The position numbers were made by a program, and so were the translations under genes. DNA of 64,000 nt from Escherichia coli. GTDB taxonomy: Bacteria; Pseudomonadota; Gammaproteobacteria; Enterobacterales; Enterobacteriaceae. A model generated the notes under the pieces. That model ran no database searches and was not told the origin of the DNA. It saw nothing but the letters and a program-made list of their open reading frames with translations. The stretch lies in the NCBI RefSeq assembly GCF_045037415.1, contig NZ_CP173440.1; one strand, written 5' to 3'. Shown here in pieces: positions 7,366-45,087 of this stretch; the stretch's first letter is position 1; each line of letters starts with the position of its first letter.

Positions 7366-7369
7366 ACGT

Positions 7370-21536: not shown

Positions 21537-21702
21537 TTACACGCCAGCTTTGACACTACCAGCGACTACAGTCGACATTAAAATCGCCGTGACCTGCTGC
21601 AGCGCGATATACGCCCGGCTGGCATCAAAAGAATTTTAACCAAACAGCACACATCCAGCGGTACAGGAGGCCAGGTTTAACCCGGGGCAGAAACAGATTG
21701 AT

Positions 21703-28944: not shown

Positions 28945-29352
28945 TTAAACAAACTCTGGTAAAGACTTAAACGTCAGCCATACAGGCTGGCGTCGCCCGT
29001 CCCTGCATACTCTGACGAGGCGATAACGGTTTTTCTCCATCGTGACCAGCCAGTACCCATCGGAGACAGGGCGATCGAGAGTGAACAGTTTTAACCCGTA
29101 AAAACCCATCGAGGTAAACAGACGCCCTTCCCGCTCCCGGAAAGAGACCGTAAAGGACGGGAACAGAAGCCAGAATGCAGTGAAGAAAACATACCAGGTA
29201 TACGGAACAGTCAGTTGTAGAATTTCATAGTTCCTGACGGTAGCTGTGACCAGGCCAAGGCTGAATACAGCAGCAATGCTGGCATATACTTTGAAAGACG
29301 CGCTATCGGAGTTTTTCCAGGTAATACCACTAATACAATGCACTTTGCTCAT
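28945..29352 (-). CDS. Membrane protein (135 aa, 2 TM)
   Basis: ORF with two hydrophobic helices. Confidence 0.45.
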   Translation of the reverse strand: MSKVHCISGITWKNSDSASFKVYASIAAVFSLGLVTATVRNYEILQLTVPYTWYVFFTAFWLLFPSFTVSFREREGRLFTSMGFYGLKLFTLDRPVSDGYWLVTMEKNRYRLVRVCRDGRRQPVWLTFKSLPEFV

Positions 29353-29361
29353 CGCCTTGCC

Positions 29362-29826
29362 TCAATGTAGTTGTCTGCGCACTTTCATCCGGGGAAGAAT
29401 TTCTTTCTCCCACAGAGACCTTGCATTCCCATGCCCCCCCAGGAGTTGCATAGCACAAACCCTGTTAAACACAGTTACTTCTTTCCTGATTGCCTGGGTT
29501 TGGCTGTCTGTGAGCTCAATGCATTCCGGTACCAACTGCATAACACCGTTCATCATTTCGGCCTTTATGAGGCCTGGACCGTCTTTTGGGTCGGCCTCAC
29601 AGGATTCCTTTACATTAAACCCGAATGAACAAAGAAGCTGGCCCTGTGCCTTAGGCCCCATCTGGACCCCCCGGCTATCGACGGTAAAGCGGACGATCGC
29701 GTAATCCCCTCCCTGATCGCTGGTTATGTTTCTTACCAGCATGCTGACCGGAGTCATATGAAGCCAGCTGTAGATACCCAAAACAATTTCTTCTTTTAAA
29801 ATCATATTCAATTTACTGGTTCTCAT
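29362..29826 (-). CDS. Hypothetical 154-aa protein
   Basis: ORF only. Confidence 0.45.
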   Translation of the reverse strand: MRTSKLNMILKEEIVLGIYSWLHMTPVSMLVRNITSDQGGDYAIVRFTVDSRGVQMGPKAQGQLLCSFGFNVKESCEADPKDGPGLIKAEMMNGVMQLVPECIELTDSQTQAIRKEVTVFNRVCAMQLLGGHGNARSLWEKEILPRMKVRRQLH

Positions 29827-29873
29827 TTTCTAATTTATGAATATGAAAACATAAAAAAAAGCTCTGTAAAGCC

Positions 29874-30116
29874 CTAATCTGTAGAAAGCAAAGGTTTGGT
29901 GGCTTTTAACTTGTACTCAATAAAAATTCCGGCTGCATCTGCAGCTGTTATTTCAGACAATATGGCATCAATGATTTCCGGCTCCGTGATGTTATTGAAC
30001 CCCTGCTTACGAACCATCTCTTTAACGCACTCAAAACGTCGGGCTGTTGCCGGGTCGATGACAAATGTATTTAGATGCACATCTTCGCATACGCCAGACG
30101 TCTCATTTAGTTTCAT
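29874..30116 (-). CDS. Hypothetical ~80-aa protein
   Basis: I prefer the internal Met (MKLNETSG), which limits the overlap with the upstream gene to 14 nt. Confidence 0.4.
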   Translation of the reverse strand: MKLNETSGVCEDVHLNTFVIDPATARRFECVKEMVRKQGFNNITEPEIIDAILSEITAADAAGIFIEYKLKATKPLLSTD

Positions 30117-30711
30117 GTTCACTCTCCAGATCAGGGATGAAGTCAAAGTTGTACGCAATCGCTTTTTCAGGTGATTCACCCGCGATGAGTTTTAACCAGG
30201 AGTAAGAGTCTTGCTGGTTAAGAAAAATAACGAGATACCCTTCATCTGCACTGTTTCGCTGTTTAATGAATTCAATCTCATTATCCATTACGAAACCAAA
30301 TGGCCCATGTATAACACGCGACTGCTCTGGAAGCATTGAGCTGAACATTGATACCACGACTTCCCTCAGCTCCAAATTTTGGTGCGCAATAAAAGCCACT
30401 CTTTTACCTTCCTTAACGGAAGCTACAATTCGTTTAACACTCGACTTCACGTTATAGCGATACACAATCAACCGGAGCCGGGTCATGCAGAGGAAAATAA
30501 TACATACGCAACTGACAAGAGCCCCATAAGCTGAGCCTTCAATGAACCAGTTAAGGAATCCCAAAACAACCAGTCCCAAAAAAGTGAATATACTCAACAG
30601 GAAAATATAAAAGTTAATTTTACGGTCTTTTGGATACCAGGTTGATGCAACGGCTATGATAGCCATTACGCCGACTAATGCATACATTGAAAGATCAAAC
30701 GGGTTACTCAT
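30103..30711 (-). CDS. Membrane-anchored 202-aa protein (3 N-terminal TM plus a soluble domain)
   Basis: ORF with a hydrophobic N-terminal half. Confidence 0.5.
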   Translation of the reverse strand: MSNPFDLSMYALVGVMAIIAVASTWYPKDRKINFYIFLLSIFTFLGLVVLGFLNWFIEGSAYGALVSCVCIIFLCMTRLRLIVYRYNVKSSVKRIVASVKEGKRVAFIAHQNLELREVVVSMFSSMLPEQSRVIHGPFGFVMDNEIEFIKQRNSADEGYLVIFLNQQDSYSWLKLIAGESPEKAIAYNFDFIPDLESEHETK

Positions 30712-30925
30712 CGATAGTCTCGCAATCGTGCCCAGGGCAGCCCTTGACAGGTGAAAATTCAGGGCATTCTTGAGTAGTTATAAGTCGCTCACCGGCGTTA
30801 AAACGTATTTGTAAGTCACTACGTAAAGCTTCTGCATTCTCCCCCCCCAAAAGGTAGAGCAGAAACTCATCATCAGCCAAAAGTAACTTTTCCAGGTCAT
30901 AGCACTCGTGTTTGTAGTCCATCAT
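30704..30925 (-). CDS. Hypothetical 73-aa protein
   Basis: ORF overlapping the downstream gene by 8 nt. Confidence 0.4.
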   Translation of the reverse strand: MMDYKHECYDLEKLLLADDEFLLYLLGGENAEALRSDLQIRFNAGERLITTQECPEFSPVKGCPGHDCETIDE

Positions 30926-31066
30926 TCCTCCTTGAGACTATTAAATCACAGAGGAAAGACAAATTTTCTGTACTAAAGGGCTAAATCTGGAAGATCAAGT
31001 AAATTTTTTGGCAAAAAAAAAGCGCATAAAATATGCGCTCTTTTTTTAATAGACAACAATGGGTAA

Positions 31067-31327
31067 TTAGTTCATACGGAGCATATGGTTCTCAACTCTT
31101 GCTATGAAGTTACTCATTGAGGGAAGGTTTAACTCGTCTCCTATGCGTTTACAGTCAAAAAGTGACTTTGCAGGGGAAAAGTTAAAGCCTTTATTATTAA
31201 CAAACTCTAAAATCTCTTTCAGATAGGAGTTTTTACTTCCGGCACTGAAGGAGTTGAGTAAAGGCCCACGATCTAAAAGTTCACCTGCTGCTTTTTTGGT
31301 CAACTTAATACCTTGTTTACTTATCAT
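31067..31327 (-). CDS. Hypothetical 86-aa protein
   Basis: ORF only. Confidence 0.35.
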   Translation of the reverse strand: MISKQGIKLTKKAAGELLDRGPLLNSFSAGSKNSYLKEILEFVNNKGFNFSPAKSLFDCKRIGDELNLPSMSNFIARVENHMLRMN

Positions 31328-31368
31328 CTTACAATGATAGTACTCAAAGCTTTCACTACCTTCCCAGT

Positions 31369-31605
31369 CTAGAACCTGGAGGAGTGAAACTCAGAAAGCA
31401 AAAGCAACATTGTGCCATGATCACGAACAACATATAAAAATTCAAAATTACCATTTATCAACGCTTGCTTAACTAAGCGCAAATCTATCTCTATGTCGTA
31501 GTCATACCAGGGGCTATTAACGAGAGAAGCGGAATGCTTCAGAATGAAGTGTTCCTTAACCCAGTTAAAAACCGATTCGATATCATAATCATAATAAACG
31601 TTCAT
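31369..31605 (-). CDS. Hypothetical 78-aa protein
   Basis: ORF only. Confidence 0.35.
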   Translation of the reverse strand: MNVYYDYDIESVFNWVKEHFILKHSASLVNSPWYDYDIEIDLRLVKQALINGNFEFLYVVRDHGTMLLLLSEFHSSRF

Positions 31606-31673: not shown

Positions 31674-32918
31674 TTATTTAATCAAGTCAAAAAATCTTTC
31701 TTCCAGTTTGCCTGGGAAAGCTTCATGACCCTTGAGCATTAATACATCATTCCAATCGACACCTTTCGCACCATCAGGTATATCCAGTTCAGGCAAATGA
31801 ATCTCAACCCGGACTGTTGCTTCAGGATAGCGTTCAGCAAGTAAGGGCTCCATACGGCTCTTGAGAACACGTGCAGCAGACTCACCAGCTGAATTACCGG
31901 TGTTTGGATTTACCCGATCTTTATCTGCCCAAATCGACAATTCAATAAATTGGCAATCAGAAGGTGGCATTAAATACTCAGGTATTTCCAGCATTTCCAT
32001 AAATGTTGAACTTGAAGATGCCCAGCAAGGAATTGAAGTCGCCTCAGTTACTGATAGCGCATTCTCAATACCTTCACTAACCCCCAAAAACCATGATTTA
32101 GTTTCATCACAGTAAGTTGGTTTAAATAACTGCATCGAACCACCATTCATCTGGTAGACCGGTTTCATCATTAACTTTGGGTTTTCAACATCAGCTTTTT
32201 TAAGTCCATCATCAGTAAGATGAGTTTTATGGATAGTGCAATTGCGACCGAATTTATCGTTAAAAATAGCAACCATCGTTGGATGAAAACTGGCTGGCTT
32301 ATTAGAACCGGGCCAGTATCTCATCTTAGCATTAAACCCCAGACTAGCTGGAATTTTTGTGAGCATCCGTTTTATACCGCGCCCTGATAGATATCGAGCA
32401 ACCAATGAATCGGGTGTCACAAATTTTGTGTATTTATACACGGCTTCTAACTTATTTATACGACTAAGTCTCTCTTCCTCACCAATATCTGAAAAAGATT
32501 GAGCTTTTTTGTCATAAAGAACAATATTAACACGGTCGGCTTCAGTTAACTTTCTATCCTTGGAAACACCAAGCATTTCAAGAATGTTTTTTGCAGCCTG
32601 CGTTTTACTAATGCTTTTTAGTTCAGCAATTAAATCAATGCCATCAATAAAAGTATTATGGGGATAATCCTCATGAATAGCATGAACACTTTCTAGCGTC
32701 CTATCTTTAAATCTGAATTTCGTTTTGCCACTACCAGTAAACGGGCATTTGACAGAACGTGGAGCTTTTTCTAAAGCCTCCTGAAACTCAGGATAGTACG
32801 TTAATACATTACGCCATCCACCCAGCTGCTGCACATGAGATTTGACAAGGTCAAAAGTTTCTTGAGCGTACTGCATAGGGGTTTTAGCCGGTGAATTATA
32901 ATTTGTAGAATGACTCAT
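31674..32918 (-). CDS. Toprim-domain primase-like protein with a degenerate N-terminal zinc-ribbon-like segment
   Basis: VKCPFTGSGKTKFRFKD sits where primase Zn-ribbons read CPxCGGKDRFRF. RYLSGRGI is DnaG-like. Toprim motifs are VSEGIENALSV and WADKD (DxD). Confidence 0.6.
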   Translation of the reverse strand: MSHSTNYNSPAKTPMQYAQETFDLVKSHVQQLGGWRNVLTYYPEFQEALEKAPRSVKCPFTGSGKTKFRFKDRTLESVHAIHEDYPHNTFIDGIDLIAELKSISKTQAAKNILEMLGVSKDRKLTEADRVNIVLYDKKAQSFSDIGEEERLSRINKLEAVYKYTKFVTPDSLVARYLSGRGIKRMLTKIPASLGFNAKMRYWPGSNKPASFHPTMVAIFNDKFGRNCTIHKTHLTDDGLKKADVENPKLMMKPVYQMNGGSMQLFKPTYCDETKSWFLGVSEGIENALSVTEATSIPCWASSSSTFMEMLEIPEYLMPPSDCQFIELSIWADKDRVNPNTGNSAGESAARVLKSRMEPLLAERYPEATVRVEIHLPELDIPDGAKGVDWNDVLMLKGHEAFPGKLEERFFDLIK

Positions 32919-33028
32919 AATACTCTCCTAGCTGACATTGTGGGTTTCACAATGCCTACTGCAATGCAGATAACATTGAGAAACCCACAACGCAGAATGA
33001 AAGAAGTGCCACGAAGTGGCACAATCAT

Positions 33029-33259
33029 TTATAAGACTTCGAAACCATTAGCAATATATTTCGCCACCAGTCTTTCAACTGCTGAATCCATTGCTTCGGA
33101 ATTGTCTTCGGAAAATGTGGCATCACGAACTAATCGTTCAACCGGCATAATTCCATTAACAACTTCCCCTTCTGTGACGTATACCTTGGTTCCAATCATC
33201 CCACTGTCTAATTGACGAGAGTCAACGCGAACACGTTTAATATACTTATTACCTTTCAT
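33029..33259 (-). CDS. Hypothetical 76-aa protein
   Basis: ORF whose start codon abuts a 10-bp-stem hairpin (33260-33288). Confidence 0.4.
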   Translation of the reverse strand: MKGNKYIKRVRVDSRQLDSGMIGTKVYVTEGEVVNGIMPVERLVRDATFSEDNSEAMDSAVERLVAKYIANGFEVL

Positions 33260-33330
33260 ATGTTTGCTCCTTAAAGGCGAGCAAACATACCCATGCGGGT
33301 ATATAAGCCCGCTTGGGAAGATAATAGAAG

Positions 33331-35295
33331 TTAAACTAGGCTTCTGATTAAATCTTTATACAAAGAATTTAATTCAGAGATATCGTTTATTTTTTTAAAA
33401 TAAACACCATCAAAGCCTAGAGGTTTATCAATGCCATAACCGACACAAACAATATCTATGCCATGTTTTTTAGCATTTTTAACTGCTGAGCATACATCAT
33501 CTATTGATTCAGATGGGTCACCATCAGTCGCAATAAAGATAACTTTACGTGAGAAATTCAAACGTGAGAAATATTCCACGCATGAATTAATCGCTGTCGC
33601 AGTTGGGGTATGTAATCCGCTAGAAACATTTTCATAATTTGAAAAGCAACTAGATACAGATTTATTAAAAAACTTAAGTATATCTATATAACCTTCTTTT
33701 TGAACTGGATAAACAAGATCAGCAACATCAATATTGTTCACCGATTCACAAGCAAGGGTAAATGCAAGATTTGCTTTTAAGGCTAAAACTGATACGTCAT
33801 GCATTGATACAGAGATATCACGCAGGTTTATTACACCTACATCAGACCTTTTGTATCCCTCCCCGTTTTTCTTAAACACAGAAGTTGCACCCATAGGTAC
33901 TTCAACAAGCTTTCTACTATGAATACGAGATCCACGATCAGTTAGCCTGTTGTTACGCCGTACAGTTTGCTTATTTAAAGAAGAAAGTAACTTTCTTAGC
34001 TCACGAGAGTGAGCTAGAGCATTATTATAGTCCTCCTCGGTCAGAGTGATAAAACCAAAACGAAAACCAAAGTTTTGAATTTCAGCATCACTGAAAGAAG
34101 ATGCCATTTGAGATATGGATTTTTTTATAGCTTCATGAAAATCATGAGAATTATCCTGTTCAGCCTCTGTGTCTAGGTATTCATCAAGATCTTCAATCGC
34201 CTTTCTTAATTGCGCTGGTGAGAAACTTTGTGTTGTACGTGCAGAAGTTACAGAACCATCAGAGCCGTCAGAGCCGTCAGAGTCATCAGAGCCGTCAGAG
34301 TCATCAGAGCTGTCAGAGTCATCAGAGCCGTCAGAGCCGTCAGAGTCATCAGAGCCGTCAGAGTCATCAGAGCCGTCAGAGTCATCAGAGCCGTCAGAGT
34401 CATCAGAGTCATCAGAGCCGTCAGAGTCATCAGAGCCGTCAGAGTCATCAGAGCCGTCAGAGCCGTCAGAGTCATCAGAGCCGTCAGAGTCATCAGAGCC
34501 GTCAGAGTCATCAGAGTCATCTAATCGGTTTTGTTCTTCTTTATCTTTTAGATCATCACGTAACTTTTCTAGTTCTTCATATAGTTTCAATCCTAACTCA
34601 CATGCCATAAGAGTTGAATTAACCCCTGTGGCTTCGAGAATCAAAGAATCAAAACGGTCTTTCATGTCGAATAGAACAGTATCAGCAAGAGCAAAAAAAT
34701 CATTCAATATTTCAGGAACGCCTTCTTGCCCAAGCTGATTTACACGAAGCTTGTTTAAAATATACATTTCAATGTAGGAAACGATATTAGAACCGTCACC
34801 AGTCATGTTTCCATCACTAACCATAAACGAATACATTTCAGCAAGCATTACTTTTGAAAGCGGAAACTGATTACCAGTTTTCTCTTCCATCTGAATGTCT
34901 TCGAAGAGGTTAATAGAACGATGAAGCCTCTTAAGTTTTATTTCCGCTTTTTTCTCCTCTTCTTTAGAGGAAAAACTAGCGGTTCCGTCAGGCATTATAC
35001 ATTCGAAGCCAGGTTGTTTTGATAAATATTCATTTTCAAAATCAACAGTAGTTTCGATTTCTGTATAACGATTATGACCACCTTCATGACATATCCAGCC
35101 GCTACATAGCTTCCAGTATTTGTCATTACTAAAGTCACCGTTTGGTAAAAAAATAGTTTTAGATCTCATGTTAATGCATGGTGTTGCATGTGGCCCCAAA
35201 AAAAGAACATTGAGTTCAGGATCAGCACCAATCACACGAGCAAGATTATCTACAGCCAACTTACTACGAATAGAATTGTTTAGCTTAATAGTCAT
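33331..35295 (-). CDS. CobT-like vWA protein with an N-terminal HExxH motif and a central acidic repeat
   Basis: WICHEGGHNRY (HExxH), an 88-residue D/S/G tract, and a C-terminal vWA domain with the MIDAS motif DISVS plus FIATDGDPSE. Confidence 0.7.
   Translation of the reverse strand: MTIKLNNSIRSKLAVDNLARVIGADPELNVLFLGPHATPCINMRSKTIFLPNGDFSNDKYWKLCSGWICHEGGHNRYTEIETTVDFENEYLSKQPGFECIMPDGTASFSSKEEEKKAEIKLKRLHRSINLFEDIQMEEKTGNQFPLSKVMLAEMYSFMVSDGNMTGDGSNIVSYIEMYILNKLRVNQLGQEGVPEILNDFFALADTVLFDMKDRFDSLILEATGVNSTLMACELGLKLYEELEKLRDDLKDKEEQNRLDDSDDSDGSDDSDGSDDSDGSDGSDDSDGSDDSDGSDDSDDSDGSDDSDGSDDSDGSDDSDGSDGSDDSDSSDDSDGSDDSDGSDGSDGSVTSARTTQSFSPAQLRKAIEDLDEYLDTEAEQDNSHDFHEAIKKSISQMASSFSDAEIQNFGFRFGFITLTEEDYNNALAHSRELRKLLSSLNKQTVRRNNRLTDRGSRIHSRKLVEVPMGATSVFKKNGEGYKRSDVGVINLRDISVSMHDVSVLALKANLAFTLACESVNNIDVADLVYPVQKEGYIDILKFFNKSVSSCFSNYENVSSGLHTPTATAINSCVEYFSRLNFSRKVIFIATDGDPSESIDDVCSAVKNAKKHGIDIVCVGYGIDKPLGFDGVYFKKINDISELNSLYKDLIRSLV
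34257..34520. repeat. In-frame tandem repeat (9/18-bp units) encoding (DSDGSD)n
   Basis: GAGCCGTCAGAGTCATCA-type units are repeated across 264 bp and generate four spurious repeat ORFs in other frames. Confidence 0.9.
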
Positions 35296-35358
35296 ATAGC
35301 ACCCATAAAGTTAAATGGGCGCACCCATGTGGGTTTGCCCACAAGGGATTAGAAGATA

Positions 35359-36435
35359 TCAAAAATTAAATGGAGTCGAGAAAGTTACTTTTTTCTGGAC
35401 TACATCATTATTTGAGACCGGAGTTATCGAAGAATTAGATGTCTTAGCAGGAATACCATTTCCAGTAAAAGGATCAACGAAAATGGAACCAGTATTATTA
35501 GCCAAATTATCATCTAAATCGTTAAAACGATTTTTAATTTCGGCAATAAAACCTGTTACAAGATCGTCACCATCCATAATTCTGTTCAAACGATTCGTAT
35601 CACTTAGCAGTAATAACCATTCGCGAAACAAACTCATGTGAAGGGGGGAATCCAAATTACCAGAAGGAAGATGGTTTAGTACGCTTTGGATAGAGTCAGC
35701 AATTTTAGTTGCACGATCATCCAAAAACATAAAACTTACAACCTTATCTTTTAAATTTGACAGTTTTTCTACGAAAGTCTGGTCAATTTTAGGTTTTGTG
35801 CAGGAAGCATAGATAGATTCAGCAGTCAGAGCAATATCCTGTATTAAACCAACTGAATAGCGGTCTCCTAAATCCTCTCCATCAATTGACATTGGTGTGA
35901 AAGGGATTGGATGGCTAATCTGGAAAAGAAACGATTTTTCGAAGTCATCTTTAGTCATTCTTAATTTTTCAATTAATTCTGCCAATTTAGGACTTCTGTC
36001 TTTTTCCATCTGAATGTATTCTTCATAACGCTCTAGAGCATTCTGAATGCCTTCCTTGAAATATTCTCGGACGGCCTCTACTTCAATCAAATACTCTTCC
36101 AACTTAGAGGTTGGCAGTATATTCATGGAGCTGAAAGGAATGCAGTATTTACGTTTGAGATTACTCAATCTTGTATGAACAGCGCTTTTAAAGTTCAAAG
36201 CCTTAGTAGAAATCCATTGAACTTCAACCTTACTCACACTCGATTGGTCCGATACTTCATCTTCATCAAGAAACTGTCGAATTTCATTCGTTCTACGGCG
36301 ACCCTGACATCCTTCGACATCTACCTTAATAATAACGGCACCATCTTGTAATTCAGGATTGCGGTCGATGAAACTTTTTACAGTGTTACTGATTTGAGTG
36401 GTATCAGCAATAGCAGCGATTTTGATATTAGCCAT
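35359..36435 (-). CDS. 358-aa protein between the AAA+ and vWA genes (possibly DUF3150-like)
   Basis: Conserved-looking ORF. The family assignment comes from my memory of CobS-like/vWA neighbourhoods, not from a visible motif. Confidence 0.5.
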   Translation of the reverse strand: MANIKIAAIADTTQISNTVKSFIDRNPELQDGAVIIKVDVEGCQGRRRTNEIRQFLDEDEVSDQSSVSKVEVQWISTKALNFKSAVHTRLSNLKRKYCIPFSSMNILPTSKLEEYLIEVEAVREYFKEGIQNALERYEEYIQMEKDRSPKLAELIEKLRMTKDDFEKSFLFQISHPIPFTPMSIDGEDLGDRYSVGLIQDIALTAESIYASCTKPKIDQTFVEKLSNLKDKVVSFMFLDDRATKIADSIQSVLNHLPSGNLDSPLHMSLFREWLLLLSDTNRLNRIMDGDDLVTGFIAEIKNRFNDLDDNLANNTGSIFVDPFTGNGIPAKTSNSSITPVSNNDVVQKKVTFSTPFNF

Positions 36436-36526
36436 GATATTTCTCCAGTATGCACCGGAAAAATATCTCCCAAAGGGAAAATATTTCCCGGTGGGGGGGT
36501 AGGTAAAATTTAAATAAACGTATCAA

Positions 36527-37579
36527 TTACAATTGTGAAATTGAACGTGATACTTCTTCCGGGAAAAGTTGCTCAAGCAAAATTTCAGCTTTACTACATG
36601 CTTCAGAAGATAACTTAGACGTGAATGCAATTTTAAACCCAACAGAAATTTCTTCATCAAGGACTTTGGAGGTAGAAATCCATGAAATCAATTCACGAAT
36701 ATCCATCACCAGTTCGTCATCTTTCAGATTGTTAAGTTCAAAAGCAACTTTTGCAAACATTCTTAAACATGAAGGTTTCAAATCAGGAAAATGAGCCTCA
36801 GCTGCACAATACATAGCTTGTTCATCAGGTCGAATCATCGGCAATATTAAAAAACGCTTAATAAATGCAGAGTCTTGGGACTGTGATGAAGCGAAACGCA
36901 TATCCTCTCCACTCATGTTAGTGTTAGCTGTACCAATAAAGCGGGTGTAGCGATTTGCATAAATCAACTCGCCACCTTCTTTACCGGTTGCCCACGGTTT
37001 ACGCTCAAGCGGCATATGAAGCTTAGCTGCCGTATCTGGGTTTATTTTATCTATCTCATCAAGAAGAATGATATGCCCATCACGATAGCCTTGCACAAGG
37101 TCACTATAAACATACCGTGTATTTCCATTTTCTAGCGTTCTCATACCTTCAAGATCATCAATCGATAACTCATTGTTGATTTGTTTGATGGTGATAGGCC
37201 AGTTCAGCATATGGCTGATATATAATGCTAACTCCGTTTTACCAGATCCAGATTCTCCTTGCAGGCAGATGCCAGCAGTTACTTCATTATTTAAAAGTAA
37301 CTTCACCATACGGCGTAGAGTGATCGGATTTGGACGATATTTACTGTTTAACGGAGCACGAAAAGGAGTAACTCTTTTGAAAATAGGTATAACGTCATTT
37401 TCTCCAAAACAGTCAACATTAAAGTGCTCGTTTGCACGGACAATAATGTATTCCTCTTCATCTTGATATTCTATAGCCTTGGTTAACTCATGAGGTTCGA
37501 AATATTTAATTTCTAAATCAGAGTTAACATTCAAAGTTAGAATATTTGCATTGTTGTTAGCAGTAGTAGCGGGTGTCAT
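36527..37579 (-). CDS. AAA+ ATPase, CobS/MoxR (AAA_5)-like
   Basis: Walker A LQGESGSGKTELAL and Walker B IILLDEIDK. Size and layout resemble CobS-like ATPases that pair with vWA proteins. Confidence 0.75.
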   Translation of the reverse strand: MTPATTANNNANILTLNVNSDLEIKYFEPHELTKAIEYQDEEEYIIVRANEHFNVDCFGENDVIPIFKRVTPFRAPLNSKYRPNPITLRRMVKLLLNNEVTAGICLQGESGSGKTELALYISHMLNWPITIKQINNELSIDDLEGMRTLENGNTRYVYSDLVQGYRDGHIILLDEIDKINPDTAAKLHMPLERKPWATGKEGGELIYANRYTRFIGTANTNMSGEDMRFASSQSQDSAFIKRFLILPMIRPDEQAMYCAAEAHFPDLKPSCLRMFAKVAFELNNLKDDELVMDIRELISWISTSKVLDEEISVGFKIAFTSKLSSEACSKAEILLEQLFPEEVSRSISQL

Positions 37580-37606
37580 ATATAACTCCGTTGGATATTT
37601 ATGAAA

Positions 37607-38443
37607 TTAAAGGTTTTTGATAATGGCTTTCGAAGTGCTGAAAAGTAATCCGTAATCAAAACCGTATACATGAGATATTACCTTACATGCATCGGAATAT
37701 AACCACTCAACATAATCCACAGCTTCGGTTTTAAGAACATAAGAATCGGTATTCTGATCCAAAGTCCAGGCACCATTTTCACTTAGATTTTCAAGGATAA
37801 TCATTTGCTCATCGAAAATCTTTTTAAAGAGTTTCAATCTGTCAGCTATTGACCATTTAATGATCAATGATCTCCTTGTATAACAATATCTATCATCTAA
37901 GAAATCTGACCATTTAATCGGGCCTATAATAGGATGAGAAAATGTTAAGTTGTCAGTTTCTAAAGATTTAATAAGATCTTGCCTTGACTCTCTTGAACGT
38001 ATTGCAAGAAGAAGTCTTGACTTAATAAAATCAATAATTTCATCTGGGTCATATCCGAAGCGATGACACACAATTTGAAATTGTTTAGTACAATACCAAT
38101 CTAACTCCAATTTTAATTTCGGTGTTAGATATCGAAACCCATTGGCATCAATTTTATAGACCATCGATTGGTCTATATGGTACTGAACGGTTACAAAAGA
38201 TGACTCCATTATTTTATAGAAGAACGTACATATATGTTCATCTGTCCAAATGAAATCATCTAGCTCTTGATAATCATGGTTCGGTACTTTGTTACCATGA
38301 TCTTCAACGATTGAGTTTGATTCCACAGGTATATATACCTTTTCTTTAATTCCCTCATCCTCAAAGAAGAATCTGAAACTAAGTTGGTTTTCATTCTCAA
38401 TCTTTCTCAATTTACTACTTAAATGCATGATAGGTTTCTCCAT
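37607..38443 (-). CDS. Hypothetical 278-aa protein (alternative start at 38428)
   Basis: ORF only. A GGAG 9 nt upstream of the second ATG (38428) suggests the shorter form. Confidence 0.45.
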   Translation of the reverse strand: MEKPIMHLSSKLRKIENENQLSFRFFFEDEGIKEKVYIPVESNSIVEDHGNKVPNHDYQELDDFIWTDEHICTFFYKIMESSFVTVQYHIDQSMVYKIDANGFRYLTPKLKLELDWYCTKQFQIVCHRFGYDPDEIIDFIKSRLLLAIRSRESRQDLIKSLETDNLTFSHPIIGPIKWSDFLDDRYCYTRRSLIIKWSIADRLKLFKKIFDEQMIILENLSENGAWTLDQNTDSYVLKTEAVDYVEWLYSDACKVISHVYGFDYGLLFSTSKAIIKNL

Positions 38444-38489
38444 AGGAGAAACCCAAATGGGATTTCTCCCAATAGGGGTTAAAAAATTA

Positions 38490-38843
38490 TTAACGTGTTA
38501 AGAACCTTGAACCGCCGAAACCTTCAATAGGCTTAGGAGCTCGGTGAATCAATTTCTGGGCCTGGACTCTAACAACCGTCAATTCACCAGAGTGAACTTT
38601 ATCAGTCACCAGACAACCAGTTATCATCAGGTTATCGCCTCGAATAATCTCTTTAAACTCCTTATCATACAGGTCTTGAGGTATTTTCACTTGGATCGAT
38701 GAAACTACCATTTCTATTTTACCATTTCTTTCCATTTCCTGTTTGTTATCCAGTATTAGCATAATAGTGTCATATTCATTACGAACAATAACCTTATTAA
38801 CCTCGCCGGAAACGCAAACAGTATTTATGTGATTTGTAAACAT
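38490..38843 (-). CDS. Small OB-fold-like protein (SSB/PriB-like, tentative)
   Basis: 117 aa with an alternating beta-strand pattern (NTVCVSGEVNKVIVRNEYDTIMLIL...). No acidic SSB tail. Confidence 0.3.
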   Translation of the reverse strand: MFTNHINTVCVSGEVNKVIVRNEYDTIMLILDNKQEMERNGKIEMVVSSIQVKIPQDLYDKEFKEIIRGDNLMITGCLVTDKVHSGELTVVRVQAQKLIHRAPKPIEGFGGSRFLTR

Positions 38844-38987
38844 GTTAGGCCTCTTTTAAAAAATAAAAAGAAACCCAAAAGGAGTCTCTTTTTCTCCTTG
38901 TGGATGTATGATTAAACAAAATTTAGAAGATGATACCTTTTTATAAAGGACAACTTTTATAGTTGGACTCCATGAATAAGATAGGTA

Positions 38988-39974
38988 TCAATTATAGCCA
39001 ATGAAGTTCATAATGGTTGAGATTCCGAAATAGAGAATGGCAACACAGGCAGCACCTTTCAGTACTCTTGATACCGTATTATCATATCCCTTTACAAAAC
39101 TATTATTTTCTACAGCTTTAATTTCTTGAGCTTGATTTGTTTCCATAGCTGCTTTAGCTTTCATTTCATCATCTTTCAATGATGCTTCAAGTTTAAGCAG
39201 TCGTGGCATTAAATCTGCAACTACAAAATCAAAACCATTTACTTTGTGAATCATCATCTCGTTAAACGATAAGTCATAGTATTTGTCTTGAAGCCCGAAT
39301 TCACTCATCAAAGGCTTCAATTTACCATAAAGGTCATTGAGGTCCTCATGACGAGATTCAACGGTCTCAACAAAGTGCTGACGTTTATAAAAAACATGCA
39401 CCTCATCAATAACCATATCAAGCCATTGACTTACTTTAACAGCACCCAGCTTGGTCAGTTTATCTTTACCGAAGTGAAGAGACTCTGAAGTAACAATGGA
39501 GCTGATATTCAACTCAACAAGCTTTTCATCAAGAGATGATAAAAAAGCTTCGAGCGTTTTTTCACGTGGGATGTCGGGAAATTCTTCAAGAAGTTGTTCA
39601 GCCTCATCGAGATTGATCTCATTAATGAAGACATCACCAACATTCACGCTGTAAATTACAGAACGTTCACAACCAACTAAATGCTTCAGTTTAGAACTTT
39701 CTTCAAGCGCCTTTAACTCAATTACACGGCTGACAGATTCTGTCATATACCAGATGTAACTCTTATCGTCATCGGTGCCTTTTTCTATTTTACAAATATC
39801 ACTGCCAGTATTCGATGGTGGAATTTCTTCACCATAAAACGCTTTGGAATAAGCCATCAAAATTGAATCTTTCTCAATTTTGTCAGCTGCCGGGCGTGAT
39901 GGTTTAGCACTGGTGGCGGTTTTAGCACGTGTTGGGGTTTTAGCTTTGGGTTTAGCAGTAGTAGCAGTAGTCAT
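38988..39974 (-). CDS. Tail-anchored protein with a basic Ala/Lys/Thr/Pro-rich N-terminus
   Basis: From the internal Met it reads MTTATTAKPKAKTPTRAKTATSAKPSRPA... The C-terminal TM segment is GAACVAILYFGISTIMNFIGY. Confidence 0.45.
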   Translation of the reverse strand: MTTATTAKPKAKTPTRAKTATSAKPSRPAADKIEKDSILMAYSKAFYGEEIPPSNTGSDICKIEKGTDDDKSYIWYMTESVSRVIELKALEESSKLKHLVGCERSVIYSVNVGDVFINEINLDEAEQLLEEFPDIPREKTLEAFLSSLDEKLVELNISSIVTSESLHFGKDKLTKLGAVKVSQWLDMVIDEVHVFYKRQHFVETVESRHEDLNDLYGKLKPLMSEFGLQDKYYDLSFNEMMIHKVNGFDFVVADLMPRLLKLEASLKDDEMKAKAAMETNQAQEIKAVENNSFVKGYDNTVSRVLKGAACVAILYFGISTIMNFIGYN

Positions 39975-40115
39975 TTTATATACCTTTAAGTTTAGAATTA
40001 AATCCGGAAAAACCATTTACGTAGTTTATTTAGAAATTGGCGAAAGCCGTCGTTTATCACCCTGAAGCAACAAACCGCCTGAGTTTATACTTTTCTGGCA
40101 TTAGAAAGTCCGTAG

Positions 40116-40128
40116 AAAGTTACTTTTT
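40116..40128. promoter_or_regulatory. Intergenic copy of the backbone palindrome (AAAGTTACTTTTT)
   Basis: Lies in the 290-bp gap between the helicase and the next gene. Confidence 0.5.
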
Positions 40129-40307
40129 GAGAGCAATTTAGCTACGAGTTGTGGTAAGACAGATGTGAGTTATCGCACCAGCGCCATTCTTTTGGAAAGA
40201 GGCTCTGGTGTCGAAACTCAAAATTGAGCTACCCATTTATGGATATCTTAGAAGGGATAAAGGTATTAAAAGTAAAACTATTGAGAAATTTATACATCAA
40301 CCCTGTA

Positions 40308-42107
40308 TCATTGTAAACACATATCTTCACTTCCCTCAATAATTGGTATTTCTTCAGCTAACTCAACTACTTTCGGGAACGACTCAGTGATAAACTCTGA
40401 CGGTTTTCCATGCCAGGTAATGTAAAGCTCAAGCTCTGCCCTTGTCATCCCAACAAAAAATAAACGACGCTCCTCTTCTATCCCTTCATCACCGATAACC
40501 TTCGGTGAGGGTATTTGGTCATGGTTACAGTTAATGATTAGTACTTTTTTCCATTCTAGCCCCTTGGAGCCATGGAGCGTGCAGAGACATATGCCGCTTT
40601 GCTCTGTTTCACTAGATCCCTTCTTGTTACCCATGGTCATGCCAGCTGCAATATTTAGCATCTTAAGCCACCCATCTTTTATTGCCCAACGGTAACATGA
40701 CATTAAAGAAATCCGGGTTACTGACGGATCACCTTTCGTATTGGACATCTTGTACCCGGCCATCTCTAACCATTCCTTGATTTTTTTGAAACGGTTTTCT
40801 ATCTCTTCCTTACTTTGCGTGTCTGCCAACATTAGGGTCATATGCTTATGCAGCATTTTAGTGAGCACAGAAGATTCATTGGGTAATTCCGTTTGCTGAA
40901 AAGTAACTTTTCTGACACTCATCTGTTTCCACAACACATCAAGGATTAGCTCATCTTCATTTAGAAACGAAAGCACTCGTTTCATCAGACCTACGTTACC
41001 AGGTTGCCTGAAGAAGGTGAACAGGTGTAGGATATTACTAGGCTCAAGCCCTTCCCAGAAGGATTTCCCCCCTATCCTCGTAACCGGAACTTCAAGATAA
41101 CTTTCCATTTTGTCGAGTGTCGTGTTGTTTCGGCTTAAAATCGCCCAATCATGAGGGTTTTTCTCCACCAGCTCCTTGATCACATCAAATTGGTCTTCTG
41201 CCTTATCCGATCTTATAAAAGTTACTTTTCCTTTGTCCCCTTTTCTGCCTGACACGAGACTCTTTTCATAGCGGGCTTTGTTCTTTCTGATCACTGTATC
41301 AGCAAATTTAAGGATCAAGGGTGCACACCTGAAACATTTGGTGAGGTGAAAAACGTTAGGATTATATGCTTTATCAAACTGACGAAAGATCTTAACTCCA
41401 CCTGCATCTCTGAAACTGTATATTGTCTGGTCATCATCGCCAACGATTGTGGTGTTTATGCCCCTCTTTGCGTGCTCAGATATCCAGGTGAATTGAATAC
41501 CATCTGTGTCCTGAACTTCATCAACAATCAGATGAGTAATACTTAAAGGCCTCATCTTATCGGCACTTAACATGCCCACTACATACTTTGAAAGTGAGTT
41601 AAAATCTGCAACATTATCCTTTTTGCAAAAGCTCATGTACTCGTTGTAGAACGCCACCTGGTCGCGTGTATATTTTATCCTGATAATGTCCGGGTTAAGC
41701 TCCCGGCCAATGCCGTCGATGAATGGCATTATGTCGTTCACACTTTCATGGTAGTTAAGATGTTTTTGTACACGGGATACCATCGCCATTTGTTTGTGTC
41801 CGATTAGAAGCCCTCCTTTCCAACCGGTCTGGTTTACCATTTTTTTTATAAAACCGTGAAAGGTATCGACCTCTATACGGTTGAGAAACCTCGGCTCTAT
41901 CATTTTCTGGAGGCTATTTTTTAAAGAGTCTGTGGCCGCACGGGTAAAGGTTACCAGGGATACCCGGGCCAATGGATGACGTTGAAAAATGGCTTTTGTT
42001 CCCTCCTTCATGGTGAAGGATTTGCCACTCCCTGGACAGGCAATGACCATCGTGTTTTTATCCATATTTTGTATAACACGCTCTTGTTCTTCTGTACTCG
42101 ATGACAT
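40308..42107 (-). CDS. UvrD/Rep-family superfamily-1 helicase
   Basis: Motifs VIACPGSGKSFTM (Walker A), LIVDEVQDTD and GDDDQTIYSFRDAG. I prefer the start at 42107 (AAGGAG 5 nt upstream) to the ORF-track start at 42131. Confidence 0.8.
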   Translation of the reverse strand: MSSSTEEQERVIQNMDKNTMVIACPGSGKSFTMKEGTKAIFQRHPLARVSLVTFTRAATDSLKNSLQKMIEPRFLNRIEVDTFHGFIKKMVNQTGWKGGLLIGHKQMAMVSRVQKHLNYHESVNDIMPFIDGIGRELNPDIIRIKYTRDQVAFYNEYMSFCKKDNVADFNSLSKYVVGMLSADKMRPLSITHLIVDEVQDTDGIQFTWISEHAKRGINTTIVGDDDQTIYSFRDAGGVKIFRQFDKAYNPNVFHLTKCFRCAPLILKFADTVIRKNKARYEKSLVSGRKGDKGKVTFIRSDKAEDQFDVIKELVEKNPHDWAILSRNNTTLDKMESYLEVPVTRIGGKSFWEGLEPSNILHLFTFFRQPGNVGLMKRVLSFLNEDELILDVLWKQMSVRKVTFQQTELPNESSVLTKMLHKHMTLMLADTQSKEEIENRFKKIKEWLEMAGYKMSNTKGDPSVTRISLMSCYRWAIKDGWLKMLNIAAGMTMGNKKGSSETEQSGICLCTLHGSKGLEWKKVLIINCNHDQIPSPKVIGDEGIEEERRLFFVGMTRAELELYITWHGKPSEFITESFPKVVELAEEIPIIEGSEDMCLQ

Positions 42108-42365
42108 CTTAGCTCCTTCCTGTTCCGGCATAAATCATGTCACATTCAGGAAAGAATTTTCTGAAATAGAGGCTGTTTTTCGTTTTTTATTCAGTATTTT
42201 GTATCATTGACTGCTCCCCGCCCAGAATGTACTGCACCTTTACTCAGTTGGAGTCCAACTTTTGGGATGCAGTTCAAAACAGGGCGAGGATTCCAACCCG
42301 CACGGGACGAGATTTCTAGGGAGCCTAACTGATAAAAGCACCTTTAAAAGCACTCTTTAGTGTGC

Positions 42366-42397: not shown

Positions 42398-42646
42398 ATG
42401 GCATTTCAGGTACTAACCACTACTGCAGCAAGCATCACAGAGCTTAAACGTGATCCTATGGGCACCTTCAATGCAGGAGAAGGTGCCCCGGTAGCCATAC
42501 TGAATCGCAACGAACCCGCTTTTTACTGTGTACCGCCTGCTCTGTATGCTCAACTGATGGAGCTTCTTGAAGATCAGGAGCTGGGTCATATTGCTGATGA
42601 GCGAATTGGTGAGGCGGTAATCGAGGTCAGTCTAGATGACCTATAA
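42398..42646 (+). CDS. stbD: Phd/YefM/StbD-family antitoxin
   Basis: 82 aa with an N-terminus typical of Phd/YefM (ASITELKRDPMGT...VAILNRNEPAFYCV). Overlaps the toxin gene by 11 nt. Confidence 0.8.
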   Translation: MAFQVLTTTAASITELKRDPMGTFNAGEGAPVAILNRNEPAFYCVPPALYAQLMELLEDQELGHIADERIGEAVIEVSLDDL

Positions 42647-42920
42647 GCTGGCCTTTAATGAATCAGCTCTGAAAGAATGGAAAAAATTGGGCCATACCAT
42701 TCGGGAACAATTCAAAAAGAAGCTCGCTGAGCGCCTGTTGAACCCACGGGTGCCCGCATCGCAACTCCATGGACGCAAAGACCAGTACAAAATAAAGCTC
42801 CGTGGCGCAGGCTACCGACTGGTTTACAGTGTCAACGATGATGTTGTAACGGTCACCGTAATTGGCGTCGGTAAACGTGAGAATGATGATATTTACAATT
42901 TGACCAAACACAGAAATTAA
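42636..42920 (+). CDS. stbE: RelE/ParE/StbE-family toxin
   Basis: 94 aa, LAFNESALKEWKKLGHTIREQFKKKLAERL...YRLVYSVNDDVVTVTVIGVGKRE. Confidence 0.8.
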   Translation: MTYKLAFNESALKEWKKLGHTIREQFKKKLAERLLNPRVPASQLHGRKDQYKIKLRGAGYRLVYSVNDDVVTVTVIGVGKRENDDIYNLTKHRN

Positions 42921-43033
42921 GAGCGTATTCGTTCAGGTCTTTAGTTATTGGTAATCAGGGCGTTCAAATCGACTTCAACCCCAGCAGTTAATGCTTTGAT
43001 ACCTTCCCAGAGTACGACCGGCACAGGTGCTAT

Positions 43034-44427
43034 GTTCTGCGGGTTTTAATAGGCGGAATACCGACTTCTATTTATTTCCTGCACCTGTTGATTCCGTGCT
43101 GTATATATGGTTATTTATACAGGTTATCTCAATACACACTGAATGCAAAATGCTAATCCAGAAAGCGTATAAATACAGACTCAACCCAACAGATGCACAG
43201 GCGCAACGACTGCGTCAGATGTGCGGCTGCGCCCGTTTTGTCTGGAATTACGCCCTGGCAGAGACCCAGCGCATTCTTGAGACCGGACAAAAACTCCCTT
43301 CCGCCTTTGAGCTGAATAAAATGCTGACAGGATGGAAGAAATTACCTGACCTGGCGTTTTTATCTGATGCCTACACCGACAACCTTCAGCAGAAACTGAA
43401 AGACCTGCATGGGGCCTGGAAACGGTGCTTTGATAAAAAGCTGGCAGCGAAAGCGCCCGTGTTCAAACGTAAAAGCCACGGCAATGACTCTGTTCGTTTC
43501 GTCAATTTTGACAAATACTGCCAGCTTGAGTACAGACGCGTTAAGTTACCCTCGGGGCTGGGCTGGGTGACATTCCGGCAGTCCCGCGCCGTTGTGGGGA
43601 AAATCAAAAACGCAACGGTCAGCCAGCACGCTGGCGGCTGGTATATCTCATTTCAGGTAGAAATGGTTGTCGAACAGCCCGCGCACCCGTCTACGTCTGC
43701 TGTCGGTCTGGATACCGGTGTCAGCAAGCTGGCAACGCTGTCAGACGGCACGGTGTTTGAACCTGTCAACAGCTTTAAGCAGAACCAGAGCAGGCTGGCA
43801 AGGTTACAGCGCCAGCTTGCCCGTAAAGTGAAATTCAGCGCGAACTGGAAGAAGCAGAAAGCAAGAATTTCCCGCTTACATTCGCATATCGCCAACATCC
43901 GCCGCGATTACCTTCACAAAGTCACAACAACAGTCAGCAAAAACCACGCGATGATCGTTATTGAGGACTTGAAGGTTTCCAACATGTCAAAATCGGCAGC
44001 GGGTACGGTAGATGAGCCGGGGCGCAACGTTGCGTCAAAATCAGGTCTTAACCGGGCGATACTGGATCAGGGCTGGTACGAAATGCGCCGCCAGCTCGAA
44101 TATAAGCAACGATGGCGCGGCGGTGAGGTGCTGGCAGTAAATCCGGCATATACCAGCCAGAAATGCGCCTGTTGTGGTCATACAGCGAAGGAAAATCGAC
44201 AATCGCAGGCAAAATTTGTTTGCACGGTATGTGGGTACGAAGCGAACGCTGATGCAAACGGTGCGCGTAATATTTTAGCGGCAGGACATGCCGTGCTTGC
44301 CTGTGGAGGGAAGGTGCAGTCAGACCACCCAACGAAGCAGGAACCTGACACTGAGCGATCAGCGGTCACCCACTAATGGGAATCCCCTATCTGAATCACG
44401 AAGTGTAAAGGCGGGGGAGGATGTCAA
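43034..44427 (+). mobile_element. IS200/IS605-family element carrying tnpB only (IS1341-like derivative)
   Basis: The left boundary is the point where it diverges from its twin's flank (after ...GGCACAGGTGCTAT). The right end shares GGGAATCCCC...GGGGGAGGATGTCAA with the second copy. Confidence 0.65.
43150..44376 (+). CDS. tnpB: TnpB (RuvC-like RNA-guided nuclease, OrfB_IS605 plus zinc ribbon)
   Basis: [36 protein letters not shown]..., IEDLKVSNM, and a C-terminal CxxC...CxxC (QKCACCGH...[20 protein letters not shown]). 408 aa from the ATG at 43150. Confidence 0.85.
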
Positions 44428-44661
44428 TACCACCAGAGATGTAAACTGGAACAATTTAATTCTAAATTATCCATTTGGAGTGGTCGCTTTCTGATTATTA
44501 GTTATCGGTAAGCGGCGCGTCTAAATCGACTTCAACCCCAGCAGTTAATGCTTTGATACCTTCCCAGAACACGACCGGCACAGGTGCTATCGGTTTTCCA
44601 AAGGGTGCTCCCTCCGATGAAGGAGGGAGGGGAATTTGGACGGGGTTGAAAACCCGTGATT

Positions 44662-45087
44662 TTAGCCCCGCTGGTTTTGAATATACTTCTTCACAACTTC
44701 CAGTGGGGCGCCACCGCACGAGCCAGCAAAGTAACTGCGCGACCAAAGTACAGGTTTGCTATAGGCGGCTCGTAGATCGATATATTCATTCCTTAGCCGC
44801 CTGCTGGTGACTGCTTTGAGTGAGTTGACCAGCTTAGATAGTTGCACGGTAGGCGGGTATTCAATCAGCATATGAAGGTGATCAGCATCACCGTCACACT
44901 CCTTTAATTCTGCGCCAAAATCACCACACACCTCAGATACATACTGACGGGCGCTGTTGATATGTAATTCACCAAAAACTTTGCGGCGATACTTGGTCAC
45001 AAACACAATGTGAACATGCAAAAGAAATGCTGCATGGCGGATGCGATTGAATTCACTCTTCACTTGACTACCTGTTGTTTTATACAT
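44662..45087 (-). CDS. tnpA: IS200/IS605 Y1 (HUH) transposase TnpA
   Basis: 141 aa with an HUH motif (HVHIVFVTKYRR) and a C-terminal catalytic Tyr region (LWSRSYFAGSCGGAPLEVVKKYI). Confidence 0.85.
   Translation of the reverse strand: MYKTTGSQVKSEFNRIRHAAFLLHVHIVFVTKYRRKVFGELHINSARQYVSEVCGDFGAELKECDGDADHLHMLIEYPPTVQLSKLVNSLKAVTSRRLRNEYIDLRAAYSKPVLWSRSYFAGSCGGAPLEVVKKYIQNQRG

Follow-up and report, generated by a model that had tools for sequence, protein, structure and literature searches.

What might a CobS/MoxR-like AAA+ ATPase, a 358-aa protein and a 654-aa protein that joins an HExxH motif to a von Willebrand factor A (vWA) domain do together, when their genes lie among DNA-handling genes on a conjugative plasmid? 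We examined this question in a 64,000-nt stretch of Escherichia coli DNA (contig NZ_CP173440.1 of assembly GCF_045037415.1; hereafter the window), which matches at 100% identity IncHI1B/IncFIB(K) MOBH/MPF_F megaplasmids of Klebsiella pneumoniae such as phvKpST395_NDM1_1657. An initial annotation had described nine co-oriented genes at this locus. All nine open reading frames (ORFs) were found on the minus strand, with intergenic gaps of 27-291 nt, and a script located every motif that had been quoted. In order of transcription, the three genes at issue encode a CobS-like, MoxR-clade AAA_5 ATPase (350 aa, 36527-37579), a DUF3150 protein (358 aa, 35359-36435) and a CobT-superfamily protein (654 aa, 33331-35295). 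We consider it somewhat probable that this trio is a mobile-element machine of the CobS-CobT type, remodelling or proteolytic in action, that serves restriction evasion when the plasmid enters a new cell.

The description of the ATPase as CobS/MoxR-like was borne out, with agreement between Pfam (AAA_5, 1.4e-28), PHROG and Protein Data Bank (PDB) matches. Its Walker A (GESGSGKT, residues 108-115; 37235-37258) and Walker B (IILLDEI, 37052-37072) motifs are both present. The CobS-type family phrog_249 was matched at 8.5e-28, compared with only about 1e-7 for clamp-loader families, and the PDB sequence matches were to midasin AAA modules (3e-13), CbbQ, NorQ and CobS (8e-5) over residues 101-332. 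The TIGR01650 CobS model scored 32.4 bits (E 5e-8), far below its equivalog cut-off of 558. The IncC Vcrx089 orthologue aligned with the window protein by BLASTP at 25% identity over 216 aa (E 2e-19), a better match than that to any other characterised single-domain AAA protein. As judged from these alignments, the closest characterised relative of the ATPase is Vcrx089 of IncC plasmids.

Published experiments tie the IncC protein to restriction. Deletion of vcrx089-090 lowered transfer into a restriction-modification-positive Vibrio cholerae O395 recipient 25-fold; the defect was rescued by expression in the recipient, not in the donor, and was absent when the recipient was an hsdR mutant (PMC7498323). 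In E. coli, the same deletion in pKAZ3 increased restriction 906-fold by EcoKI and 424-fold by EcoBI (PMC11602122), and AntiDefenseFinder lists 'vcrx089_090' as a two-gene system (PMC11724313). The initial annotation had noted that CobS-like genes are conserved in IncC/SXT-type backbones without an assigned function; it was right about the conservation but not about the function, since Vcrx089-090 is a published anti-restriction system. For the ATPase family, its statement that such a module lacks an established role has likewise been overtaken (PMC11724313). Anti-defence and establishment, which were among the roles that it had suggested, now have experimental backing for the IncC ATPase homologue alone (PMC7498323, PMC11602122). 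The IncC genes for DUF3150 and the vWA protein come immediately downstream of ssb-bet-exo and share its orientation. When cDNA was primed from the 3' end of vcrx094, it included vcrx087, vcrx089 and bet (PMC7498323), and because the DUF3150 gene follows exo, which is the position of vcrx094, DUF3150 is co-transcribed with the IncC anti-restriction ATPase. Both vcrx094 and the vWA gene go undiscussed in PMC7498323, PMC11602122 and PMC11724313.

A gene-neighbourhood census drawn from PLSDB, a phage collection and a few metagenomic contigs revealed that the trio co-occurs widely outside this plasmid. Using tblastn against PLSDB, we found DUF3150 on 1977 plasmids and the vWA protein on 1982, with matching genus counts for the two (Klebsiella 622/622, Escherichia 509/508, Salmonella 415/415); homologues of the ATPase, which is more conserved than either partner, were present on 3022. 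The 10.5-kb block itself was matched in 575 PLSDB records, 562 of which cover at least 80% of it. IncHI1 and IncHI2 plasmids carry all nine genes in the same order. The Shewanella plasmid has helicase, SSB (single-stranded DNA-binding protein), AAA, DUF3150, vWA and Toprim genes; IncC has traN, AAA, a 302-aa gene, ssb, bet, exo, DUF3150 and vWA; and IncT Rts1 has SSB, RecT, Exo, MoxR ATPase, DUF3150 and vWA, the last split by the insertion sequence (IS) IS2. In Pseudomonas megaplasmids and related metagenomic contigs the order is ParAB, Toprim, PD-(D/E)XK nuclease, AAA_5, a gene of ~270 aa, a CobT-like gene of ~680 aa and DUF3150. In IncHI1B, IncHI1, IncHI2, Shewanella, IncC and IncT plasmids the trio occupies a syntenic place next to traN/TraU and genes for DNA handling, a recurrent module of MOBH-type conjugative elements that extends, as had been supposed, to IncC/SXT-type backbones. 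Because the gene set is conserved across about 2000 plasmids, the arrangement is not a matter of chance.

Next, we considered the 654-aa protein, which the initial annotation had presented as an unusual combination of an HExxH motif, an acidic repeat and a vWA domain. The parts are all there. Its N-terminal domain (34531-35295, minus strand, as are the other two parts) holds HEGGH at residues 70-74 (35074-35088) and NLFEDIQME at 34885-34911; an uninterrupted D/S/G run follows, which spans 90 residues (259-348; 34252-34521) where 88 had been given; and the vWA domain (33334-33858; Pfam VWA 3e-6) has an intact MIDAS motif (metal-ion-dependent adhesion site), with DISVS at residues 493-497 (33805-33819) plus T563 and D591. 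The combination is not unusual, however, because CobT itself consists of a peptidase M48C-like N-domain, a disordered linker of ~90 residues and a MIDAS-vWA domain, as described in the CobSTN preprint (bioRxiv 10.64898/2026.07.21.739949). Our family profile could be aligned over the full length of the solved Brucella CobT, 9uka_G (E 4e-43), and among 66 sampled relatives Pfam CobT was matched in 47 and CobT_C in 53. An exhaustive HMMER scan with the N-domain gave 639 clusters (50% identity) at E <= 1e-3; 123 of the best 148 of these are 500-785 aa long. By homology and layout, then, the protein is a divergent member of the CobT superfamily, with an M48-like N-domain, an acidic linker of about 90 residues and a MIDAS-vWA domain.

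What is notable is the reverse of what had been implied: the mobile-element branch retains a zinc motif that real CobT has lost. In 124 relatives sharing about 20% identity, H70, E71, H74, D133 and D493 were invariant, and E137 (63 residues after HExxH), S495, S497, T563 and D591 were at least 90% conserved. With D133 and E137, HExxH is followed by the acidic residue expected as third zinc ligand in a gluzincin. The zinc motif is therefore kept as strictly as the MIDAS site, and the conservation of both also holds across seven plasmid families. HExxH was present in 117 of 123 mobile-element relatives. In six of the 123 full-length relatives (P0076, P0101, P0144, P0175, P0176 and P0178) it is replaced by HExxxH, for example HETLGH or HEGAGH, which might reflect a different geometry of the metal site or a loss of function. 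Brucella CobT, in contrast, reads S-M-A-L-R where the relatives have HExxH, and Q at D133. Because HExxH and D133 are conserved on one side and replaced on the other, genuine CobT is a pseudo-peptidase, while the mobile-element branch appears to keep a working gluzincin site. An AlphaFold2 model of the N-domain had a mean confidence (pLDDT) of 80, and its top Foldseek matches were minigluzincins, with a probability of 0.9-0.97 but an E value of about 0.1. The depth of the alignment behind this model was limited, as a word-indexed homologue search with the N-domain returned 7 sequences.

The linker is encoded by a near-perfect tandem repeat (34251-34521), which can be read as an 18-nt unit present 14.8 times or a 63-nt unit present 4.1 times, at 97% identity. 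Among plasmid copies that are at least 99% identical the vWA gene spans 1836-2124 nt, and therefore the length of the linker is polymorphic in frame. We also considered the linker as an anti-restriction DNA mimic and rejected the idea, because the linker of genuine CobT is equally acidic. Insertion sequences have broken several of these genes in natural plasmids. IS903 splits the vWA gene in p51015_NDM_1 (NZ_CP050380.1; locus 1958-4988), IS1 splits the helicase gene in the KP101 ST147 plasmid (NZ_CP137418.1; locus 8935-11511), and IS2 splits the Rts1 vWA gene (locus 19030-22192), yet Rts1 transfers. Both IS-split vWA genes leave an N-terminal fragment of 223 aa that ends just before the linker.

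The third member of the trio, the 358-aa protein, belongs to Pfam DUF3150 (PF11348, 4.7e-15; 56.0 bits against a gathering cut-off of 24.9). In the literature searched we found no functional study of this family. Its AlphaFold model (pLDDT 68) combines a small alpha/beta N-terminal unit with helical bundles and has a disordered tail at the C-terminus (residues 314-358); it was built from a shallow alignment, the word-indexed search having found 8 homologues with the protein and 25 with the seed alignment. The DUF3150 proteins of IncC (locus 15647-16924), IncT Rts1 (17524-18957) and the Shewanella plasmid (8800-10224) have long, disordered, acidic tails whose tips are aromatic or hydrophobic (…DDDGDYFF, …EDDGLFLF and …DDDFGFGF). 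These long tails resemble the C-terminal tail of SSB or a ligand for a MIDAS or a pore. The tail of the window protein is shorter and non-acidic and ends in FNF. DUF3150 is a candidate third subunit, specificity adaptor or client of the pair formed by the ATPase and the CobT-like protein.

Taken together, these observations led us to favour a machine for restriction evasion, embedded in what would be an operon for the entry and establishment of DNA. We infer that the IncHI module shares the anti-restriction role of its IncC relative and that DUF3150 and the CobT-like protein take part in it; the zinc site, to judge from its conserved residues, would be catalytic, and the target would be a host-defence protein. 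Structural work on the chelatase offers a template for how such a machine might operate: the N-domain of CobT attaches to the lid of CobS, a 'shaft' that comes before the vWA domain reaches into the pore of CobS, and CobN binds CobT on the MIDAS side (bioRxiv 10.64898/2026.07.21.739949). By analogy with the CobSTN and NorQD complexes, the CobS-like ATPase may form a hexameric ring, with the CobT-like N-domain docked on its lid, the pre-vWA segment inserted into its pore and the acidic linker tethering the two halves of the CobT-like protein. The MIDAS face of the vWA domain would hold the client protein while ATP hydrolysis remodels it, and remodelling might be coupled to cleavage of the client, because the CobT-like protein, unlike real CobT, keeps an intact HExxH...E site. 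DUF3150, which is always co-encoded on plasmids and integrative and conjugative elements (ICEs), would take the place of third subunit or specificity factor that CobN holds in the chelatase. Meanwhile, the helicase, the SSB-like protein and the Toprim primase-like protein could process and convert the incoming single strand. A more specific form of this mechanism, which we put forward as conceivable but doubtful, is that the trio is an ATP-driven, MIDAS-targeted metalloprotease that dismantles or destroys host restriction complexes (for example HsdR in the type I case) on newly arrived DNA. If true, the metalloprotease would be a plasmid counterpart of ClpXP-mediated restriction alleviation, 'vcrx089_090' would be part of a larger machine, and an explanation would be at hand for the 'cobS/cobT' genes that are widespread in phages and now labelled cobalamin auxiliary metabolic genes.

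Several points weigh against a restriction-evasion machine made of these three proteins. The identity to Vcrx089 is low (25%), and Pfam detected AAA_5 but not CbbQ_C in the window protein, whereas both were detected in the IncC protein, as published for Vcrx089. By definition, the published system consists of the pair 089+090, and jackhmmer found no Vcrx090 homologue among the window ORFs, the 278-aa protein encoded just before the ATPase being unrelated by sequence. Transposon sequencing of IncC highlighted vcrx089-093 only, in a comparison of Cas+ and Cas- recipients whose design was not aimed at anti-restriction genes. The minigluzincin matches of the N-domain model give weak support for a peptidase fold, and the DUF3150 fold is uninformative, the fold search returning generic four-helix bundles only. 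In the phages examined, moreover, CobS-like and CobT-like genes are adjacent but lack DUF3150, and a role in virion assembly has been proposed for phage pairs of MoxR and metallopeptidase-vWA proteins (PMC7824862).

These phage genes deserve some description. In Escherichia phage Cyrano (OV696614.1; locus 7001-10440) and Roseobacter phage CRP-810 (1827-5645), CobT-like and CobS-like genes lie in early or replication regions, and these phage or phage-plasmid CobT-like proteins carry HExxH, (E/D)DxxxE and DxSxS. The CobS-like protein of CRP-810 is 617 aa long and has an N-terminal extension of ~350 residues. The Cyrano copies bear the labels 'dimethylbenzimidazole phosphoribosyltransferase' and 'cobalamin synthetase', which apparently result from a collision with the names of the unrelated CobT and CobS of the anaerobic pathway.

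How, then, do other explanations compare with restriction evasion? The locus could be an accessory of replication or establishment, in which the trio acts as a chaperone for the plasmid's own primase-like, TrhI and SSB-like (or Bet/Exo) proteins, assembling or recycling a primosome or a complex for recombination on DNA that is entering or being replicated, with no attack on host defence. Across plasmid families the trio always sits among genes for helicase, SSB/OB, Toprim, RecT/Bet, Exo or PD-(D/E)XK proteins; the Cyrano pair adjoins DNA polymerase III alpha and DNA ligase genes; and effects on ssb/bet/exo expression were held partly responsible for the CRISPR evasion lost on deletion of vcrx089-090 (PMC7498323). 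As far as the description of a systematic deletion study of Rts1 goes, 32 genes are needed for transfer from E. coli to E. coli, and deletion of the RecT and exo genes lowers transfer 10-100-fold. However, the vcrx089-090 phenotype disappeared in an hsdR mutant recipient (PMC7498323), which points to a host restriction enzyme and not to a general replication defect, and the PHROG clamp-loader matches of the ATPase, being far weaker than the CobS-type match, reflect generic AAA+ similarity. The Rts1 list as described includes the neighbouring RecT, exo and S063-like genes and names no ATPase, DUF3150 or vWA gene. In the laboratory, conjugation and maintenance do not depend on the trio genes, a result that fits a host-range function, not a core function, and we regard the replication accessory as rather unlikely. 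The same list speaks against an assembly chaperone or processing protease for the type IV secretion system, pilus or relaxosome, akin to viral MoxR-vWA pairs. Such a role would suit a module that directly adjoins traN/trhU/trbC in all MOBH elements and whose helicase is named TrhI, and roles in assembly and proteolytic processing have been proposed for the phage metallopeptidase-vWA/MoxR pair (PMC7824862). Nevertheless, Rts1 transfers although IS2 splits its vWA gene, IS-disrupted vWA or helicase genes occur in clinical conjugative plasmids of Klebsiella, and IncC vcrx089-090 mutants transfer normally to a non-restricting recipient (PMC7498323), so that we hold a part in the conjugation machinery to be very unlikely.

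A further alternative turns the restriction-evasion reading around and makes the locus a plasmid-borne conflict or defence system, a MoxR-vWA ternary system directed against phages or rival elements, with the zincin as effector and DUF3150 as sensor. Published conflict systems include ternary MoxR-vWA sets with a third protein and peptidase effectors (PMC7159879); the strict conservation of HExxH and MIDAS is compatible with a logic of effector and sensor, and the linker repeat is polymorphic in length. Against this, PADLOC-DB v2 gave no meaningful match for any protein of the trio, only partial P-loop AAA matches to DolB (2e-6) and IetA (9e-5); the locus is a fixed backbone beside tra genes and not a variable defence island; and the sole known phenotype of a homologue is counter-defence in the recipient. 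We judge a conflict system to be unlikely. A genuine cobaltochelatase or another metal-cofactor insertase (of the CobNST, NorQD or CbbQO type), carried as cargo, has practically no claim left. Homology to CobT and CobS over their full length, and the labels cobS, cobT or 'porphyrin biosynthesis' in database and phage annotations, speak for it. Nevertheless, the distribution is confined to mobile-element backbones, and neither the nine genes nor the 48 kb of annotated sequence flanking them on the identical plasmid include a CobN/ChlH-like or cobalamin gene. The view that the module is not a genuine cobaltochelatase thus stood, and the chelatase is effectively refuted by the CobS score of 32 against 558 bits, the lack of CobN, the retained HExxH and a MIDAS Thr in place of the Asn of CobT.

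If the trio is indeed a defence-evasion device, it would help to set the host range of its plasmids and would offer a point of attack for curbing their spread. In the main large plasmids for multidrug resistance and hypervirulence in Enterobacteriaceae, the module belongs to the fixed backbone: about 2000 IncHI-type plasmids are within BLAST reach, with distant relatives in IncC, IncT, SXT/R391-type elements and Pseudomonas megaplasmids. Three points are new here, namely that the anti-restriction ATPase already published goes with a universally co-encoded CobT-like zincin-vWA adaptor, so far unrecognised, and with a DUF3150 partner, that the IncHI plasmid family carries the module, and that mobile-element CobT-like proteins retain the zinc site lost from metabolic CobT. 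The last of these suggests that CobT derives, with loss of catalysis, from a peptidase-vWA adaptor whose active-looking form persists on mobile elements. It follows that the labels 'cobS', 'cobT', 'porphyrin biosynthesis' and 'DMB phosphoribosyltransferase' on phage and plasmid genes are misleading.

The remaining six genes of the block surround the trio, all on the minus strand. The first to be transcribed (40308-42131, 607 aa) encodes a UvrD-like superfamily 1 (SF1) helicase, as had been proposed, with matches to both Pfam UvrD-helicase (1.5e-33) and UvrD_C (2.9e-29); RefSeq places its start 8 codons later (599 aa). It is an orthologue of the 'IncHI-type conjugal transfer helicase TrhI' (phmmer E 3e-192 in IncHI1 and 9e-191 in IncHI2) and is related to the helicase of the Shewanella plasmid (E 2e-68). 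The best equivalog matches (rep, uvrD and pcrA) scored 154-172 bits against cut-offs of 911-1144. PADLOC matches to GajB and DRT raised the possibility of Gabija, which we rejected as generic UvrD similarity lacking a GajA partner. No phenotype for R27 trhI was found in the literature searched. The 342-aa ORF that follows (38988-40016) has no Pfam, PHROG or PADLOC family; RefSeq begins it at Met15 (39974), the probable true start, which gives 328 aa. Its basic N-terminus is rich in Lys, Ala, Pro and Thr, like histone H1 or AlgP, and a hydrophobic, transmembrane segment lies at its C-terminus. The protein looks tail-anchored from this composition, and the two features suggest a membrane-anchored DNA-binding protein. 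It has orthologues in IncHI1 and IncHI2 (E 1e-21) and, after iteration, a relative in the Shewanella plasmid. A weak match (E 7e-4) was also seen to an IncC ORF downstream of the vWA gene.

The 117-aa protein (38490-38843) had been called OB-fold-like (oligonucleotide/oligosaccharide-binding). This assignment rests on its position and on sub-threshold SSB/OB matches (E 0.08-0.23), which are Pfam tRNA_anti-codon OB at 0.084 and the PDB SSB 1se8 at E 0.23 over 98 residues; the IncHI1 orthologue matched Pfam SSB at 0.094, also below threshold. As the gene sits where the Shewanella plasmid has a bona fide ssb, we describe the product as a possible divergent OB-fold/SSB-like protein. Directly upstream of the AAA gene lies the IncHI-specific 278-aa gene (37607-38443), with orthologues in IncHI1 and IncHI2 only (E 1e-16) and no Pfam, PHROG, PADLOC or PDB match. 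Between the vWA and Toprim genes, the 76-aa protein (33029-33259) matched no family, although a small ORF is conserved at this position in IncHI1 and IncHI2 (E 2e-6). The last gene (31674-32918, 414 aa) encodes a primase-like protein with DUF7146 (1.4e-16; 61 bits against 27) and Toprim_3 (2.4e-8; 34.7 bits against 27.2) domains, which matched phrog_510 'DNA primase' at 6e-30 and no PDB sequence. Orthologues occur in IncHI1, IncHI2, Shewanella and Pseudomonas megaplasmids. The Toprim acidic residues are intact (EGIE at 32061-32078 and DKD at 31917-31934), and an N-terminal motif, CPFTGSGKTKFRF, occupies residues 58-70 (32709-32747). Invariant across families are C58, P59, G62, G64, F68, R69, E282, E285, D332, D388 and D391. 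The claim that the zinc-ribbon cysteines are lost holds in so far as there is no CxxC...CxxC and C58 alone is kept, but what remains is a conserved CPx(n)GxGKxxFRF motif and not random decay.

To one side of the block lie the replication genes (RepB, Hha, a tyrosine recombinase and Tus), to the other an IncHI-type tra block (traN, trhU and trbC). A scan for regulatory signals gave promoter-like sites that were not above chance (25 against 35.6 ± 6.9) and a weak excess of terminator-like hairpins (18 against 10.5 ± 3.5). Directly upstream of the helicase promoter region is a Phd/YefM-RelE/ParE toxin-antitoxin pair, which IS200/IS605 elements follow (pair and elements at 42398-42920 and 43027-45087, strands +/-). 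These elements (a TnpB ORF of 449 aa and TnpA of 141 aa) separate the module from the traN/trhU block. On the other side, 7 more small co-oriented ORFs (73-202 aa; 28945-31605, minus strand) extend downstream of the Toprim gene towards a Tus-like terminus-binding gene. The first of them, of 78 aa (31369-31605), matches ORFs that in IncHI1 and IncHI2 come just downstream of Toprim, as well as an ORF of the Shewanella plasmid that lies further downstream; no homologues of the other six were detected in other plasmid families. The region at 6001-12000 forms a GC-rich island (56-61% GC, where the module has about 37-45%) and was presumably acquired as cargo.

Finally, we compared the module with known systems. 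NorQ-NorD, CbbQ-CbbO and RavA-ViaA likewise combine an AAA_5 ring with a MIDAS-vWA adaptor, through which force reaches a client, and NorD and NorQ were among the best PDB sequence matches; their clients, however, are metabolic enzymes (NO reductase, Rubisco), and they have neither an HExxH zincin N-domain nor DUF3150. A pair of MoxR AAA+ and metallopeptidase-vWA proteins was already noted in group 2.2 jumbo phages (PMC7824862). By its description it is alike in pairing a MoxR-clade ATPase with a vWA protein that bears an N-terminal metallopeptidase domain, but the phage pairs examined lack DUF3150 and a virion-assembly role is inapplicable to a plasmid. CobS-CobT shares the AAA_5 hexamer and an adaptor of roughly 640 aa with the same domain layout. 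Unlike CobT, which has Asn518 and no zinc motif, the window protein has HExxH, D133, E137 and the canonical MIDAS Thr, and its module has DUF3150 as the third gene without CobN or a cobalamin context. The IncC/SXT-R391 hde locus differs from the window in its bet and exo genes, in place of which the window has helicase, SSB-like and Toprim proteins; in the window an unrelated 278-aa gene precedes the AAA gene and no Vcrx090 homologue is present; and the published system leaves out DUF3150 and vWA. The two loci nevertheless share a homologous AAA_5 gene on the traN-proximal side of a MOBH/MPF_F backbone, DUF3150 and CobT-like vWA genes downstream of it in the same orientation, and an association with genes for handling single-stranded DNA.

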